A stretch of DNA of 10,754 bases from Planctomycetota bacterium (GCA_038227875.1 JBBRPR010000118.1:1-10754); one strand, 5' to 3'; counted from the first letter of the stretch, positions 2,520-8,814 are shown. The notes: generated from the letters alone by a model not told the origin. Made by a program: numbers and translations.

Positions 2520-2547
2520 TGGTGCCGGCGGAGGGAATCGAACCCAC
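2520..2547 (-). pseudogene. tRNA 3' fragment (T-arm, acceptor 3' strand, CCA); Leu- or Thr-like, isotype uncertain
   Basis: The minus strand reads GTGGG-TTCGATT-CCCTC-CGCCGGC-A-CCA. No complementary 5' acceptor strand or D-arm lies at the expected distance upstream. Confidence 0.85.
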
Positions 2548-2566
2548 GGCCCACGTTGAATCCACG

Positions 2567-2623: not shown

Positions 2624-2645
2624 CGGCTACGCGGCGGTTACGCGG
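2624..2645 (+). repeat. 11-bp tandem direct repeat, candidate integrase arm-type sites
   Basis: CGGCTACGCGG (2624-2634) and CGGTTACGCGG (2635-2645), about 80 bp from the att core. Confidence 0.55.
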
Positions 2646-2652
2646 GACTGTA

Positions 2653-2925
2653 ATGGCAAGTTGATCTGGCCCGGGTTCGTGGGTACCCGGAAATTGTTTC
2701 GCATTCGAAGACCGGCCAAGATCCCCAACGGGACTCCTATTCAGCTATAAAATCCGGCGAGCTTGCTGTAAGCCGAGCGTTTTTTAGTTCAACCACGCGT
2801 AGCGCTGCCTCCGGCTTGTTTTCGTTGATTTTCCGCGTTCGAGTGTACGAAGACAACTTTGAGGACTGATCGTTGGCGAACGGGTGCCGGAGACAACAAT
2901 GATTGTGGGAATACAGAGCTCGCCT
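2653..2925 (+). repeat. Dispersed structured element, copy A (candidate ncRNA or ssDNA element)
   Basis: Shares ordered blocks GGTACC (2682), CGAAGACC (2706), GCGTAGC (2797), TCCGGC (2810), GATCGTTGG (2868) and GATTGTGG (2901) with copies B and C, plus ATAAAATCCGG (2747) with copy C. Boundaries are approximate. Confidence 0.8.
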
Positions 2926-3213
2926 CCCCGGAATTGATCCGCAACCACCCTCATTTCGTTGCTCCGACGGCATAGTACGCCGTCCCTCGCGATCTTCGGC
3001 CTTGGGACCGGACGTGTTGATAGACTATCCAACTGGAGATAATGGATGTTTACGCACCCCTACATCGATCCAGACAGATGCCCCTTGGACCCAGAGGCGA
3101 AGGGCCGGAAGTCGTGCCCGAGGTGTTCCCGACCAGACAAGCCATGCTGCAATATTGTCATCGAACCCGGGAGCCAGTGACAATTAGAGGCGCAACCGCC
3201 AGGAGGTGGAATC

Positions 3214-4107
3214 ATGCAACTGGAAGATCGCAACCGACTGCAAGTGTGGTCCCGTCTCGCCGCTCTGGTTGGAATTATGTGTCTGCTGTCCGATTTTGGA
3301 CCGGCGCGGGCTCAAGCGCGGAATCACCCTGATGCCTCCGACCTAGGTGCGATAGCGCGGCAGGCAACGATCGAGATTTGTCGAAATCGAGATTCCACTG
3401 CCATTGATCGTTTCTTTTCCGAGCCGTTCGTGCAACACGATCCGAACATTGGGGACGGACTGCCCGGCCTGAGGGCTTTTGTTACCGAGCTAGCGAATTC
3501 TAGGACGACGAACATTACGATTTATCGCACGGTTGTGGATGGCGACATCGTCATGCTTCATTCGAAATACGAAGGCTGGCCCGGCTTTTCGGGGCCGGTC
3601 ATAGCGTTTGATCTTTTTCGTTTCAAGGACGGCAAAATCGTCGAACATTGGGGCGGACAAACCCCCGAGACCGGTCCCAATCCGTCCGGGCATACGCAGG
3701 TGGATGGCCCGACGGCCGTTGTTGGTCGCGAACGGACCGAAGCCAATCGCACTCTCGTTTCCGGCTTCAAGCAAGTCGTGACCGTTGAATTGCGTTTCGA
3801 TCGTGTCGGTGAGTTCATCGATGGTGATCATTACACCCAACATGCCTCCAAAGTTGGTGATGGTGGCGCACGGATGCAAGCGCGGGTCTCCGGGGTGGTG
3901 AAGCCCGGCGCTGCGCAGGTGCTGATTCCTCGACTCTACATCGCGGAAGGCAATTTCGTGCTTGCCCTCGTCGAAGCACGCACCGACCCGCCCACGGCGA
4001 ACTACGACCTTTTTCGAGTGGAGAACGGCAAGATTGTTGAGCATTGGGACGTGCTCTCTGTGATTCCGCCGCGCGATCACTGGAAGAACACCAACGGCAC
4101 CTTCTGA
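3214..4107 (+). CDS. Tandem SnoaL-like / NTF2-fold protein with probable signal peptide
   Basis: Two homologous halves: FVQHDP...DG...DGDIVMLH...FDLFRFKDGKIVEHW and YTQHAS...DG...EGNFVLAL...YDLFRVENGKIVEHWD. AGGAGG lies at 3201-3206 and the hydrophobic N-terminus ends in ARA. Confidence 0.9.
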   Translation: MQLEDRNRLQVWSRLAALVGIMCLLSDFGPARAQARNHPDASDLGAIARQATIEICRNRDSTAIDRFFSEPFVQHDPNIGDGLPGLRAFVTELANSRTTNITIYRTVVDGDIVMLHSKYEGWPGFSGPVIAFDLFRFKDGKIVEHWGGQTPETGPNPSGHTQVDGPTAVVGRERTEANRTLVSGFKQVVTVELRFDRVGEFIDGDHYTQHASKVGDGGARMQARVSGVVKPGAAQVLIPRLYIAEGNFVLALVEARTDPPTANYDLFRVENGKIVEHWDVLSVIPPRDHWKNTNGTF

Positions 4108-4483
4108 GAATCATATGGGAAAGGCAATCGGGAGTGAGTGATCTGTGGCCGAAGGGCAATTAGCCCTGCTAGTCGACACCAATCATTTAGGAGACTAAAA
4201 ACTCTTGGCCGCCGCCTTGTACGGATACAATCCTGACGGAAACCTGTCATCGCATGCGGGCTCTATCGCCCCGTGAAAAGCGTGCGCCCATCAACGAACC
4301 GGAGCTTGTTGCCAACTGGGTAGACACAATAAAAACTGCGTTCACCCCACGGTTGTGTTTCAATCGATCGGAGAATGGAGCCGTTCGGCTGTTTGAGACG
4401 GCGAACACCACATTACGCATGAAACAAATCGCCAGGTCTGGGCGTATCCTAGAGCGCGTACCTTCAGCGTCGGGGCCAAGCCG

Positions 4484-5134
4484 ATGGCGGAACTTTCTCC
4501 CGTGGCGTTCCATGCACCCACTGCGCTGCCGGCGCAGCCCTCCAGCGTTGGCACGCGAATTCGCTGGGGAATTTGTGTCCTGCTGTGCCTGGGAGTTGTA
4601 GGTGTAGCTTCGAAGTATTACTTTCGCCGGCCTGTCGGGCACTTCAACGAACATTACTGGTTGTTGCTGTCGCACATCGTTGGAGGTTCCGTCGCATTGC
4701 TCTTTGGACCGTTCCAATTTTCGCGACGGCTGCGCGATCGCAATCGTTCGCTTCACCGGCGAATGGGTCAGGTCTATCTCTTGGCTGTTGCGCTGGGTTC
4801 CCTGGCGGGATTCGCGTTGGCATTTTTCTCTGTTGGCGGTGTGGTGACCCATTTCGGCTTCGGATTTCTGGCCGTAGCGTGGTTCTTCACCGGTTGGATG
4901 GCCTATCGCTATGCCCGCGCAGGACGCATCGAAGAGCATCGCGAGTGGATGATCCGTAATTTTTCACTTTCACTGGCGGCGGTTACGCTGCGCCATTATT
5001 TGCCCTTCGCGTTGTTTGTGCTCCACTGGCCATTTTTACGCGCATACGTCCCCATTTCATGGCTATGCTGGGTCCCGAATTTAATCGTGGCCGAATGGAT
5101 CATTCGACGGCGCTGGGCTGTCGCGACAATGTAG
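4484..5134 (+). CDS. DUF2306-family membrane protein
   Basis: Multiple hydrophobic helices with family-typical motifs HIVGG.VALL.GPFQF, HRRMG.VY and HREWMIRNFSLSLAAVTLR. The exact start is uncertain. Confidence 0.87.
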   Translation: MAELSPVAFHAPTALPAQPSSVGTRIRWGICVLLCLGVVGVASKYYFRRPVGHFNEHYWLLLSHIVGGSVALLFGPFQFSRRLRDRNRSLHRRMGQVYLLAVALGSLAGFALAFFSVGGVVTHFGFGFLAVAWFFTGWMAYRYARAGRIEEHREWMIRNFSLSLAAVTLRHYLPFALFVLHWPFLRAYVPISWLCWVPNLIVAEWIIRRRWAVATM

Positions 5135-5590
5135 TGCGTGCAACCAGACCCCGCCTTCAAACGTCGCGTGTATTTCTGATGCGGATATTCACTGTTTTCA
5201 CTTATTGGCATTCAATTTTATGAACTCTGAATCTGCTCCCCAAAAACTCCAGCAACCGTCTGATTCAATGCTTACCCCTTTTTCCAACAGTGCGGGGCGG
5301 CTGTGAACATAGAAGCCTCGATCAGTTGCACCGCGTCATGCCGTGTCAAGTGGAGCGCGGCACAATTCCCGGCTTCGTAACTTTAATCGGGGATTTCCCT
5401 TTTGCCCTCGGATAGGCACACTTATACACCCCGGGGCCCATCCTATTGAACTTCTCGACTCCGCGGAACCTGATGCAGAGCCGCGAAGCTTTCTCGCTGA
5501 GCTCGAAGAGTCGATGACACCGGAGCAAAAAGGACAATTGACCGAGCCGTGGCCCGGTAGCGAACCGAAAGGCGAGGTCTCAACACGAAG

Positions 5591-5788
5591 TTAGGAATCC
5601 CGAAACGTTCGGCCCATCTCCTGAACGTTTTGGTCAAGCTCTTCTTCGGTGCTGGCGTAAGCGAGATTATGGCATCCATCAACGGAGCAATGTCGGGAAA
5701 ATCGGGTAACGTCACCAACAACGGTTGTTCCGTTTTCAAGAGGTGCCGCTGGATGGTCCGGACAAATAAGGCGAATTTGCGCATCCAT
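5591..5788 (-). CDS. Small hypothetical protein with CxxH...CxxxxC putative zinc-binding motif (65 aa)
   Basis: MDAQIRLICPDHPAAPLENG...RHCSVDGCHNLAYASTEEELDQNVQEM. GAAGG lies upstream of ATG 5788. No recognised family. Confidence 0.45.
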   Translation of the reverse strand: MDAQIRLICPDHPAAPLENGTTVVGDVTRFSRHCSVDGCHNLAYASTEEELDQNVQEMGRTFRDS

Positions 5789-5865
5789 TTTAGCGACCTT
5801 CAGACCGTCTAACATGTGAGCGCCATTATATATGTGCAACACAGAATTATCATCACCGGCCGTCT

Positions 5866-5955
5866 TTGCTCGTCTAACTTCCGACAACAATGCGTTTTCT
5901 CCTTTTGGGGATACTTCTTGTAATGGTTGAATTATGGTGGGATTTCAGCTACTGA
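5866..5955 (+). pseudogene. 5'-truncated, frameshifted copy of the small membrane protein at 7553-7738
   Basis: ARLTSDNNAF / LLLGILLVMVELWWDFSY* aligns with ARLTSHTNAFSFFLLLGLILVMVELWRDFSY*. It has an 8-nt deletion in the T/C run and lacks the N-terminal half. Confidence 0.75.
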
Positions 5956-5957
5956 CT

Positions 5958-6240
5958 TGAGAAATTAAAAAGAACGGCGGAACTGGCCGAGATCCCACTG
6001 CCGAATCATCGGTACCAAAAAATTATTCTAAATACGAAGACCTGCTTAAGCTCTCATCGGGCCCCCTCATTCTCGGTGCGGTGGGACGGTAGAACCCGCT
6101 GATCTCCCTAAAAACCGCGTAGCCCAACTTCCGGCATGATTTAGGCAAAGATCGCCTTCACGCATGTAGGAAGAGGCTCTCAGCAATCGATCGTTGGGCT
6201 ACGGATGCGGGAGACATCAAGGATTGTGGGATTACGACTG
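5958..6240 (+). repeat. Dispersed structured element, copy B
   Basis: Blocks GGTACC (6011), CGAAGACC (6035), GCGTAGC (6117), TCCGGC (6130), GATCGTTGG (6189) and GATTGTGG (6222). Perfect 11-bp inverted repeat CGTAGCCCAAC (6118-6128) / GTTGGGCTACG (6193-6203). Confidence 0.85.
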
Positions 6241-6351
6241 CGTAGTGGCGTTTCCAACGGTCGTAGGACTGCGCGACGCGAGCATCTGACAACTGAAGTA
6301 GTATGCTTTTGAGCTTTAGCGTCAACGGAACCTGCGATACGGGAGCTTTCT

Positions 6352-7434
6352 ATGGCGATCATTATTTCTAGGGATGGAAAGAATGCAAAGAGAATCGACA
6401 AGTCTGATTTCGCCGAAGAAGACCAGCTCCAACAATACATCTACGCGAATCCCGAAAGTATTCCGCTTTATGACATTAAGGAAGACATTCGCCTGCTCCT
6501 GCTAGGAAGAGAATTTCCCACTGATAGTGGACCTATCGATGCCATCGGAATTGATAAAGACGGCGACATCTACTGCGTCGAAACCAAACTCTACAAGAAT
6601 CCAGACAAGCGCCTGGTCGTCGCTCAGGTGTTGGACTACGGCGCTTCACTCTGGCGCTCGTATCAGGATTTCAGTGAATTCACCGGGTGGATGGAAAGGG
6701 AGGCAAACAAGACGTTTCGAGTAAGTGTGTCTCAGCGAATCAAAGACTTCTTTGTGATGGAGGATGACGATGTTACGAACACACTTCACGCCGTAAAGCG
6801 AAATCTCAATGCCGGCAAGATTAAATTTGTCGTCTTAATGGATCAATTGCATGATCCTCTTAAGAATTTAATCGTTTTTCTTAATCAAAGCAGCCGTTTT
6901 GATATCTACGCTGTAGAGATGGAATTCTATCAGTACGAAGCATACGAAATCATGATTCCAAGACTATTCGGTGCCGAGGTCAAGAAAGATGTCGACGCTG
7001 CGTCTCAAAGTCCGAGACGCGCGTGGGATGAAAATAGCTTTTTGACTGATCTCAAAACTAAGAATGTGACTGAATCGGACGGTTTTGCAATCAAGAAGCT
7101 GCTTAATTTTTCGCGAGATGTCGCCGACGAGCTGAGCTGGGGGACCGGCGTCACTACTGCGTCGTTCAGTGCCAAATTCCGCAAAATTGCACGCGGTTCC
7201 CTATATACGGTTAGGTCAGATGGAATTTTCATCCCTAATTTTGGTTGGTTAAGTGGTAATGAAAAGTCAGAAATGTACCGAGATGAGTTTGCTAAAGATT
7301 TGAGAAACATTCCAGGCTTGAACATCCCCGAATCTTACGAAAAATTCTATCCCGCGACCCCAGTTGCGAAATGGAGCCCTTTTGTTGATCGCATCATCCA
7401 GGCCGTGCAGCGTCTGCTTAGCATCCAAGGTTGA
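6352..7434 (+). CDS. PD-(D/E)XK nuclease of NucS/RecB-like type with an additional C-terminal domain
   Basis: Motifs E..LQ (EEDQLQ), GPID, VETK and QxxxY (AQVLDY) fall in the first ~100 aa. GGAG precedes the ATG, and the gene is visibly AT-richer than the OmpA gene. Confidence 0.85.
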   Translation: MAIIISRDGKNAKRIDKSDFAEEDQLQQYIYANPESIPLYDIKEDIRLLLLGREFPTDSGPIDAIGIDKDGDIYCVETKLYKNPDKRLVVAQVLDYGASLWRSYQDFSEFTGWMEREANKTFRVSVSQRIKDFFVMEDDDVTNTLHAVKRNLNAGKIKFVVLMDQLHDPLKNLIVFLNQSSRFDIYAVEMEFYQYEAYEIMIPRLFGAEVKKDVDAASQSPRRAWDENSFLTDLKTKNVTESDGFAIKKLLNFSRDVADELSWGTGVTTASFSAKFRKIARGSLYTVRSDGIFIPNFGWLSGNEKSEMYRDEFAKDLRNIPGLNIPESYEKFYPATPVAKWSPFVDRIIQAVQRLLSIQG

Positions 7435-7552
7435 ATGCTTAGGTAGCTTGTTTTGATAAATTGGCTTTTCCGAATTTACAATTCCGTCGCCACAGTTCAA
7501 GGCCTTAGAATAGGGCGGAGTGCTTACAACAGCCTTGGAGAGCTAAATAATA

Positions 7553-7738
7553 ATGTTCGATGCCGAAACCAAGAAGCGAAAACGAAAACCCTGGGGCTGG
7601 AAGCGGATCGCGGGTGGCGTTTGCATCGCGTTGGCGCTTGTTGCTCGTTTAACTTCCCACACCAATGCGTTCTCTTTTTTTCTCCTTTTGGGGTTAATTC
7701 TTGTAATGGTTGAATTGTGGCGGGATTTCAGTTACTGA
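7553..7738 (+). CDS. Small membrane protein (61 aa, basic N-terminus, two predicted hydrophobic segments)
   Basis: GGAG upstream; KKRKRK followed by IAGGVCIALALVA and FSFFLLLGLILVMV. Differences from the paralogous remnant at 5866-5955 include synonymous (tta/cta, ttg/tta, agt/agc) and conservative (L/I) changes, with the same stop. Confidence 0.62.
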   Translation: MFDAETKKRKRKPWGWKRIAGGVCIALALVARLTSHTNAFSFFLLLGLILVMVELWRDFSY

Positions 7739-7744
7739 CTCCAG

Positions 7745-8050
7745 AAACTCTAACGAACCTTCGGAACTGTCCGCGATCCTACTGCCGAATCATCGGTACC
7801 AAAAACATCATTTTGAATACGAAGACCAGCTAAGCCCCTCGCGGGGCCCCGTATTCACTCATAAAATCCGGTGCGGTAGGGCCGCAGATCCGAGCTAACT
7901 TCGGCAAAATGGCGTAGCCCAATTTCCGGCCATGATTTAAGGATGATTGTCTCTACCGATGTGGGAAGGGCCCTATCCGATACTGATCGTTGGCGTACGC
8001 TGAAGGAAACTTCAAGGATTGTGGATCTACGGCAGGGCTCGACTCGCCTT
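7745..8050 (+). repeat. Dispersed structured element, copy C
   Basis: Blocks GGTACC (7795), CGAAGACC (7820), ATAAAATCCGG (7861), GCGTAGC (7912), TCCGGC (7925), GATCGTTGG (7985) and GATTGTGG (8017). Together with the upstream gene end, 7641-8031 aligns with 5866-6236. Confidence 0.85.
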
Positions 8051-8814
8051 TCCGAAAAACCACTTCTCCGGTAACCCGACTTACCAAGCACTAAGAGAGT
8101 TTCTGCACAGCGTCGCGATCGATTACTTCCGAGTAGCCCGTCACTCGACCACGACCCGAGCAAGCTGTAGCCGTTGCCGGGGGAAATTGGTCTACCGCCA
8201 TTCGTTTTGTCTATGAGCGTGAATCCTGGGATCGTCTTTTTCACTGAGGTGGACCCATCATGTCGAGACCGTGTCATTGACCGCAATGTAGCCGTCCGGG
8301 ATACCAGAAGGCTTCGCAAAAGCTGCATCGGCAATCGCTTCGCACCCGTAGTGAAAGACCGGCATCATAGATGTCGAAGAGCACGACCCTGATAGAGCCC
8401 AACGTACAACATTGCCCCAGCACTGGCTGCGGCTAACGCCGTGGCAACGTAACGATCTGGCGAATGCGCTAGATGTTCTTGCATCGATCCCTTTGGCAGT
8501 CTACTGCTACCTCTCTTCGCATGATTCGCCAGCTCAAAAAGCGTTACAAAAAAACGTGCTGAGAGTTGGCATTTCTAGGACTATGCAATTCAGCTATCGG
8601 CACTTACTTGAGTGGGCGTAGAATACGCCTGAGCCAACCCGCATTGTCGGACAAATGGATTTCAAGTAGCGTTTACCCACGACGAAAGGTTGCTTACGTG
8701 AGGGCTGTCACCTACGCATCACCGAGAGTTTGATTGGAAGAAGGTTCATACCGGTGAGGCTTCGGCGCGTCCCTCTGCTCATCTACCTAATCAAGCCGAA
8801 AAGAGGAAAAGTCA

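Follow-up and report, generated by a model that had tools for sequence, protein, structure and literature searches.

Repeated non-coding elements in a tRNA-Met island of a Planctomycetota bacterium are candidate orphan guide-RNA modules of an IS110-family transposase system

The window analysed here is the entire 10,754-bp contig C118 of a Planctomycetota genome assembly (G000; 9.3 Mb, 176 contigs), and an earlier note, made from the sequence alone, had described in it three diverged copies (A, B and C) of an element of about 300 nt, which was taken for a structured RNA or a single-stranded DNA (ssDNA) element of no known family. The copies are real and non-coding, they are linked to an IS110-family RNA-guided transposase, they have a terminal motif in common with the insertion sequence that encodes it, and variable segments within the element match the DNA at junctions of the element. 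We lean, with modest confidence, towards the reading that A, B and C represent the bridge-RNA-type module of an IS110-family system in orphan form, without a transposase, similar to the MITEPpu9 module of ISPpu9. As far as the claim of an element of no known kind is concerned, the transposase neighbourhood and the common terminal motif speak against it, and the notion of a non-coding RNA stands in so far as the element is non-coding, belongs to mobile DNA and has a conserved pairing of the + strand that fits an RNA.

An nhmmer profile made from four copies and run against the 176 contigs of the assembly identified four full copies of the repeat (E values from 2.7e-71 to 1.9e-87), namely A, B and C in the window and a fourth copy, D, on contig C76 (Table 1). 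Two weak partial matches were found besides, an A-like fragment (C76:35858-35944) and a decayed copy, E, on contig C112. Six sequence blocks had been named as invariant, and all of them stand in A, B and C where they had been placed; in the metagenome homologs L039 and L034, which are introduced below, GCGTAGC and TCCGGC are not preserved. The repeat also extends about 30-90 nt further to the left than had been noted. B, C and D have a common extra left sequence of about 90 nt (5866-5956 and 7641-7738), which is the 3' end of a small membrane open reading frame (ORF); in B and D this ORF is broken by an insert of about 330 nt with an antisense 99-aa ORF (5591-5890) of no family. The left end of A begins with the tandem 11-mers GGCTACGCGGC and GGTTACGCGGG (2625-2646), and at the left end of the element in L034 the 11-mer GGCTACTATTG stands twice in tandem; the last five bases of these 11-mers vary between loci and agree within one locus. 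The tail of C can be aligned with the homolog L041 and with the 3' part of D. D itself is a mosaic of a B-like part (91% identity over 700 nt in a blastn comparison of 5540-6229 with C76) and a C-like 3' end, and the region C76:35350-35871 is a patchwork of the window segments 2782-2831, 7511-7610 and 5540-6229.

A BLAST search with copy B found no match in 16 other genomes of the family. Larger collections were scanned with a 25-base motif that is invariant in all copies, and the loci were verified by nhmmer: three loci in 185,579 species genomes included no true one, viral contigs gave no locus, and among ten loci in metagenome contigs four were true (L041, L039, L034 and L037, the last being a 3' half), all of them on soil metagenome contigs. 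L041 represents the locus of copy A in a relative, because the OmpA gene, the tRNA fragment, the spacer and the element agree with those at A. In L039 the tRNA fragment, spacer and element are as in A, but the chromosomal context is another one, and the left flanks of L034 and L037 differ from that of A. The element is thereby found in at least four left contexts: the tRNA island end, the small ORF, a 418-aa gene and a kinase-side locus.

A first link to a known type of mobile DNA is the gene that follows the element. Eight copies retain their 3' part, and three of these (L039, L034 and D) are directly followed, on the same strand, by a gene for an RNA-guided transposase of the IS110 family. 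The family assignment is illustrated by the transposase P0001, which matches NF033542 ('IS110 family RNA-guided transposase') with 222.6 bits. After D, there is a 223-aa frame on the same strand with the Transposase_20 domain only, which aligns to residues 195-312 of the IS621 transposase. Full-length relatives of this protein have 351 aa with PF01548 as well as PF02371, and the best 120 relatives are 75-93% identical over D's part. The gene after D is cut at C76:35015, as contigs of four other studies continue it upstream as ...LAMNEGQRRK. All five full-length relatives that were read start with M[MVL]IIGVDYHPSDQ, and a start of this type is found after the element in L039 (13 aa, 92%) and in L034 (12 aa, 92%), in both cases at the contig end.

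In the window, no transposase follows A, B or C, and no transposase remnant was found (best tblastn E = 1.3). The whole assembly, which is 88% complete, is without a match to the DEDD domain, and the window copies are therefore probably inert relics. When complete, flanked copies of the insertion sequence were sought, matches within the class were at most 44% identical, only one of 401 genomes of the phylum sample matched, which is G000 itself, viral contigs gave no match, and plasmids gave four matches with only 31-33% identity. For the part of D that comprises the element (L016:11024-11500), four runs at >=85% likeness gave no cover, which is no evidence of absence. We also considered that the element could be a decayed DEDD domain, as it sits where the N-terminus of D's transposase is missing, but PF01548 did not match and there was no codon signal.

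The ends of the transposase module revealed a second link. The right end of D's insertion sequence lies about 245-260 nt past the stop codon, as placed by the loose ends of foreign contigs, and its right terminus, TCCGGTAACCCG, matches copy C exactly over 12 nt (8067-8078), with a score that was reached by none of 300 shuffles. The tail of L041 also contains this right terminus (12-18 nt, p = 0.01), and A and B do not have it. In C, the terminus is preceded by CACTT(C), the first nucleotides of the module, and both are found at TTTCYCGAAA/CACTT, which is the site of the intact unit in L039. Because CACTT and the right terminus stand at a site that is occupied elsewhere, we conclude that a 'ghost' of this unit is present in C, in L041 and in the 3' part of D. 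The left ends differ, the element starting with GGCTAC... and the insertion sequence with CACTTG....

Several simpler relations between the element and the insertion sequence were tried and given up. Our former leading idea, that the element is the left end of the insertion sequence, was abandoned in view of an identity boundary 87 nt before the ATG; the 87-nt left end did not significantly resemble any of the six tails compared, which were those of A, B, C, D, L041 and L037 (p >= 0.1 in six of six). A miniature element with its right end at GAGTTTGC-like motifs or at the second GGCTAC in L041 was rejected, as the tail similarity was not significant and the alignment explains it otherwise. Nor is the whole right end of D's insertion sequence homologous to the element, since nhmmer found nothing and only the terminal 12-18 nt match. 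In the region past the truncated transposase on C76 (L016:10150-10430), contigs of other studies join variously across 67-161 nt of the right end, and natural copies of the insertion sequence therefore differ by large right-end deletions.

The third line of evidence comes from two variable segments, namely VS1, which lies between GGTACC and CGAAGACC, and block 4, the position of GCGTAGC. In copy A, eight nucleotides of VS1 repeat, exactly and in direct orientation, the 8 nt that immediately precede the element (2617-2624), and eight nucleotides of block 4 are the reverse complement of GCTACGCG (2626-2633), which belongs to the left end of the element itself. Two matches of at least 8 nt at an outer junction are reached by 1.4% of random windows (p = 0.014). 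The outer junction of L041 has three matches of at least 7 nt (p = 0.011), and the inner junction of L039 with the transposase unit has matches of 9, 8, 7 and 7 nt (p = 0.015); the outer flank of L039, which it has in common with A, is without a match in the variable segments. Block 4 of the class I copies is GCGTAGC, the reverse complement of GGCTACGC, and in L039 and L034 it is GAAATCA(A), the reverse complement of the module left end TTGATTTC (8 nt in L034). The VS1 match resembles what would be a left-target guide, and the block 4 match what would be a right-donor guide. A complete bridge RNA of the IS110 group would have four kinds of guide segment, two that repeat the left target and the left donor and two that are complementary to the right target and the right donor, each together with the core.

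Based on these links, the following mechanism can be proposed. The copies in the window would be partly decayed modules of about 330-350 nt inside an island that is integrated at a tRNA-Met gene, and they would belong to an RNA-guided DEDD transposase system. The + strand would most likely be transcribed into a bridge-RNA-type guide RNA, in which the conserved blocks may form the scaffold for transposase binding, VS1 may serve as the left-target guide, repeating target and core from the DNA that precedes the mobile unit, and block 4 may serve as the right-donor guide, complementary to the first bases of that unit. Transcription, guide function and the identity of the transposase that uses the RNA are what we infer from the sequence. 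In L039, L034 and D, the downstream transposase module, which starts with a left end of 87 nt, encodes a protein of 351 aa and closes with a right end of about 245-260 nt, would be separately mobile, and as such a module lies downstream of the element, the system would be modular, as in ISPpu9/MITEPpu9. The copies in the window would have lost their transposase or never had one. In a bolder version, which is speculative and rather improbable, the whole would be a split RNA-guided transposon: the guide RNA gene would be a free-standing miniature element that has ends of its own, the transposase module would home into its tail and thereby rebuild the RNA-transposase pair, and block 4, as the donor guide, would be re-programmed from the left end of the RNA element (GGCTACGC) to that of the transposase module (TTGATTTC).

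There are a number of points that weigh against bridge-RNA-type modules. B, C and D have no match to their own left junctions, the windows for the junction matches were picked after inspecting the data, and A and L041 are one locus in two relatives. The positions of the guide-like segments misfit the loop order of IS621, and the comparison with junctions covered the left side. A search of Rfam 15, as proposed in the earlier note, matched no family over any copy at E <= 1, with no check that Rfam holds a bridge-RNA family, and the minimum free energies of single copies on the + strand were not significant (z-scores from -1.98 to +1.46). The element is rare, with four true loci in metagenomes and none in species genomes, whereas the D-type transposase is highly abundant, as 7669 of the 8000 candidate proteins that were scored reached E <= 1e-10. 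As the module has its own ends, the element must be placed outside the transposase unit: between L039 and L034, an identity of about 98% (two mismatches) starts at CACTTGATTTC, which lies 87 nt upstream of the ATG, and continues as far as the contigs reach, while no alignment is possible immediately before CACTTGATTTC. The left end of the unit is short and its right end is long, and an 8-bp inverted repeat is found in subterminal position, as TAACAATG on the left side in L039 and as CATTGTTA on the right side in D. This layout is IS1111-like, as the IS1111 group is characterised by ends of such unequal length and by subterminal inverted repeats of 7-17 bp; it is put together here from the left end of L039 and the right end of D. 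Finally, the right end of D's insertion sequence contains guide-like matches of its own, as AGAGATGT directly repeats a subterminal stretch of this end and GAAACAC repeats the target in L039.

The sharp boundary, the unit with its own ends and guide-like matches, and the abundance of the transposase relative to the element would also be expected if the element were an unrelated dispersed repeat, for instance a structured RNA of the island family or a miniature transposable element, whose tail is a preferred target of an IS1111-type insertion sequence with a guide RNA in its own right end, so that the linkage would reflect targeting and no partnership. The tail site TTTCYCGAAA/CACTT, occupied in L039 and with a ghost in C, L041 and D, agrees with this as well. 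We regard this explanation, the main rival, as a real but lesser possibility. There are three insertion points with three left flanks (...CTCGAAA in L039, ...GCCAATT in L034 and ...ATTACGC in D), which is odd for a single guide, and block 4 of both occupied elements, L039 and L034, complements the left end of the insertion sequence. Furthermore, A and L041 match their own outer junctions, and the matches in D's right end are individually weak, each being near chance level by our own estimate from the window sizes (about 0.1 expected by chance).

A role as a regulatory cassette of the island, i.e. as operator, promoter and structured 5' leader before operons, with the 11-mers bound by an island regulator or the integrase, appears unlikely. 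The tandem 11-mers of A and L034, the position of A at 66 nt from the att core, and the same-strand genes downstream of A, B and E would suit such a cassette, but C and L041 are without a nearby co-oriented gene downstream, and the terminus of the insertion sequence and the junction matches would be left unexplained.

As had been noted for A to C, no ORF runs across a copy, and this holds for A-D in any frame. It had been cautioned that the blocks fit one reading frame (..YED..DRW..DCG) once frameshifts are repaired, which would make the copies decayed protein-coding pseudogenes, and a frame of L039 is indeed open for 159 aa across the element. However, this frame had no Pfam match, the copies had no match to the DEDD domain (PF01548), and codon periodicity was absent, as the variable columns were distributed over the three codon positions at 24/37, 24/36 and 23/35 (3' domain, eight sequences). 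Changes between B and D are non-synonymous in the proposed frame, and C has a frameshift within the best-conserved stretch, and the pseudogene explanation is thus refuted as far as such data can speak, its remaining probability being very small.

The pairing that had been described was analysed with an RNAalifold consensus of seven sequences, which has 35 pairs. In this consensus, 87.7% of the cells are paired, in comparison to 42-48% after a shift of the partners by 1-3 columns, compensatory changes occur in 9 of the 35 pairs, and the observed measures were reached by 0-4 of 500 shuffles. For the 3' domain alone, 92.6% of the cells are paired, four of five measures were reached by 25-33 of 500 shuffles, and the number of further pair types by 171 of 500. 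With -10.5 kcal/mol over the full element and -4.9 kcal/mol over the 3' domain, the consensus energies are weak. Because the few sequences that were scored are also those from which the structure had been built, the pairing gives only moderate support. Among the individual features, the C-G to T-A change in the outer stem between B and C was found as described, with a T.G intermediate in D, and so was the small hairpin (UCCC/GGGA, GCUC/GGGC and GCCCC/GGGGC in A, B and C), but A, L039 and L034 do not preserve the 11-bp helix found in B. A comparison of cognate with non-cognate duplex energies of the outer stems gave no clear cognate advantage beyond B, C and D. Folding of the + strand is favoured, as had been proposed, by invariant G.U pairs (helix 6). 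An action of the element as ssDNA (an ssi/sso or Frpo-like hairpin) in transfer or replication of the island, for which the several hairpins and the PrimPol encoded by the island could be cited, deserves hardly any credence, as the invariant G.U (G.T) pairs and the transposase linkage favour RNA, no relaxase or rolling-circle replication gene was found in the parts examined, and no specific feature speaks for ssDNA.

The island is recognised by a 32-nt copy of a tRNA-Met(CAT) 3' end in the window, which is 100% identical by blastn-short to C112:10346-10377, where ARAGORN calls the tRNA-Met(CAT) gene. This gene is adjoined by genes for a tyrosine integrase, a PrimPol protein and a resolvase; the region C112:8933-10420 contains the integrase, PrimPol, resolvase and PIN-domain genes of the island. 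As the window contains the att repeat and C112 the integrase end, the island spans at least two contigs, and since 2520-2551 copies the tRNA-Met end, the window from about 2567 onwards represents the far end of the island. Copy A starts 73 nt from this repeat, and left of the island end are chromosomal genes for an OmpA-family protein and carboxypeptidase-regulatory-like proteins. A weak tmRNA/tRNA-like Rfam match at 2520-2566 raised the idea of a tmRNA at copy A, which was dismissed because the real tmRNA is on C116 and the piece is the 32-nt tRNA-Met fragment. The 360-aa gene between B and C is cargo and encodes no transposase; its nuclease signature is NucS-like but weak. Its start codon is 131 nt past the GATTGTGG block of B, and the transposase start in L039 is 129 nt past its block. 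An ordinary bidirectional terminator, made up of a perfect 17-nt inverted repeat with subsequent T runs, separates convergent genes at 719-758, and weak chance Rfam matches accumulate on it.

Table 1. Copies of the repeat and associated features. Coordinates refer to the window unless a contig is given.
Feature	Coordinates	Strand	Remarks
tRNA-Met(CAT) 3'-end copy	2520..2551	-	Distal att repeat
Copy A	2625-2919	+	nhmmer 2630-2919, E 2.7e-71; most diverged copy
VS1 of copy A	2695..2702	+	TGTTTCGC
Block 4 of copy A	2795-2802	+	CGCGTAGC
Copy B	5948-6243	+	nhmmer 5957-6243, E 4.2e-87
360-aa gene between B and C	6352..7434	+	No Pfam match; NCBIfam NucS E 2.9e-4, far below cut-off
61-aa membrane ORF	7553..7738	+	3' end is common left flank of B, C and D; intact before C only
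Copy C	7731-8060	+	nhmmer core 7740-8038, E 1.7e-83, plus tail reaching insertion-sequence target site TTTCCGAAAAAC
'Ghost' of IS110-family module	8061..8078	+	CACTT(C), first 5 nt of module; TCCGGTAACCCG, its last 12 nt
Copy D	C76:35348-35061	-	nhmmer, full copy
Copy E	C112:5514-5626		Decayed, recognisable first domain only (C112:5528-5605); between small helix-turn-helix gene and PrimPol gene of island

If orphan bridge-RNA-type modules are the correct explanation, this would be a natural IS110-family system in which guide-RNA and transposase modules move separately, with orphan guide genes in an island of an uncultured soil bacterium, and it would bear on the evolution of bridge-RNA systems, on their re-targeting and on guide RNA action in trans. 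If instead the tail is only a target, we would be looking at an ordinary site-specific insertion sequence that strikes a host repeat. In either case, the supposed novel structured RNA sits within known mobile DNA and most likely constitutes no new class of RNA.

Compared with known systems, the bridge RNA of IS621-type elements (IS110 group) is the obvious point of reference. It is described as a structured RNA of 177 nt that is encoded upstream of and co-oriented with the transposase, with the layout of stem, guide, stem loop and guide twice over, and with variable segments that repeat the left target or are complementary to the right donor, each together with the core (PMC11208160, PMC11208158). 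The element resembles this description in its position upstream of and co-oriented with an IS110-family transposase in L039, L034 and D, and would resemble it in its guide-like variable segments. It differs from the bridge RNA described there in its length of about 300 nt, in the order and position of the guide-like segments, in its location outside the ends of the transposase unit, i.e. not within the same mobile unit as the transposase, and in having no Rfam match; moreover, the window's own A, B and C do not have the upstream, co-oriented position. In IS1111-group elements, the guide (seekRNA or bridge RNA) is reported to lie in the right end, and host repeats are targeted (PMC11208160, PMC12288879). 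Judged by these accounts, the transposase module is IS1111-like in its short left and long right end, its subterminal repeat and its fixed site in a repeated element, but this likeness is that of the neighbouring insertion sequence and not of the repeat, which would be only a target if the likeness is valid.

Expanded IS110 loci are described as having non-coding units repeated in tandem (Hu et al. 2026 preprint, 10.64898/2026.08.14.744561). The present loci are similar to them, as far as that description goes, in the repeated non-coding units beside IS110 transposases, the one-sided (half) donor matches at boundaries and the cargo between units, and they differ in that the window is without a transposase and that its units are 1.8-3.3 kb apart and not in tandem. 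For ISPpu9, an IS110-family element of Pseudomonas putida, MITEPpu9/ssr9 is described as a transposase-less small-RNA module that either adjoins the transposase gene or stands alone (PMC12288879). Like this module, the element is transposase-less and IS110-associated, with copies beside a transposase and copies on their own in different genomic contexts, the RNA gene being putative in our case. End sequences in common with the insertion sequence and a modular transposition with nested ends would be a further parallel to the published account, known here from sequence comparison; the right terminus TCCGGTAACCCG is present in C and L041, but the left end differs, and A and B are without the right terminus. 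The differences from MITEPpu9 as described are that ssr9 follows the transposase gene and does not act as the bridge RNA, whereas the element studied here lies upstream, has about 330 nt and contains guide-like matches. The likeness is one of arrangement, and sequence similarity would not be expected. With this in mind, the modular ISPpu9/MITEPpu9 arrangement appears to be the closest described analogue of the repeated element, and the expanded IS110 loci also come close.

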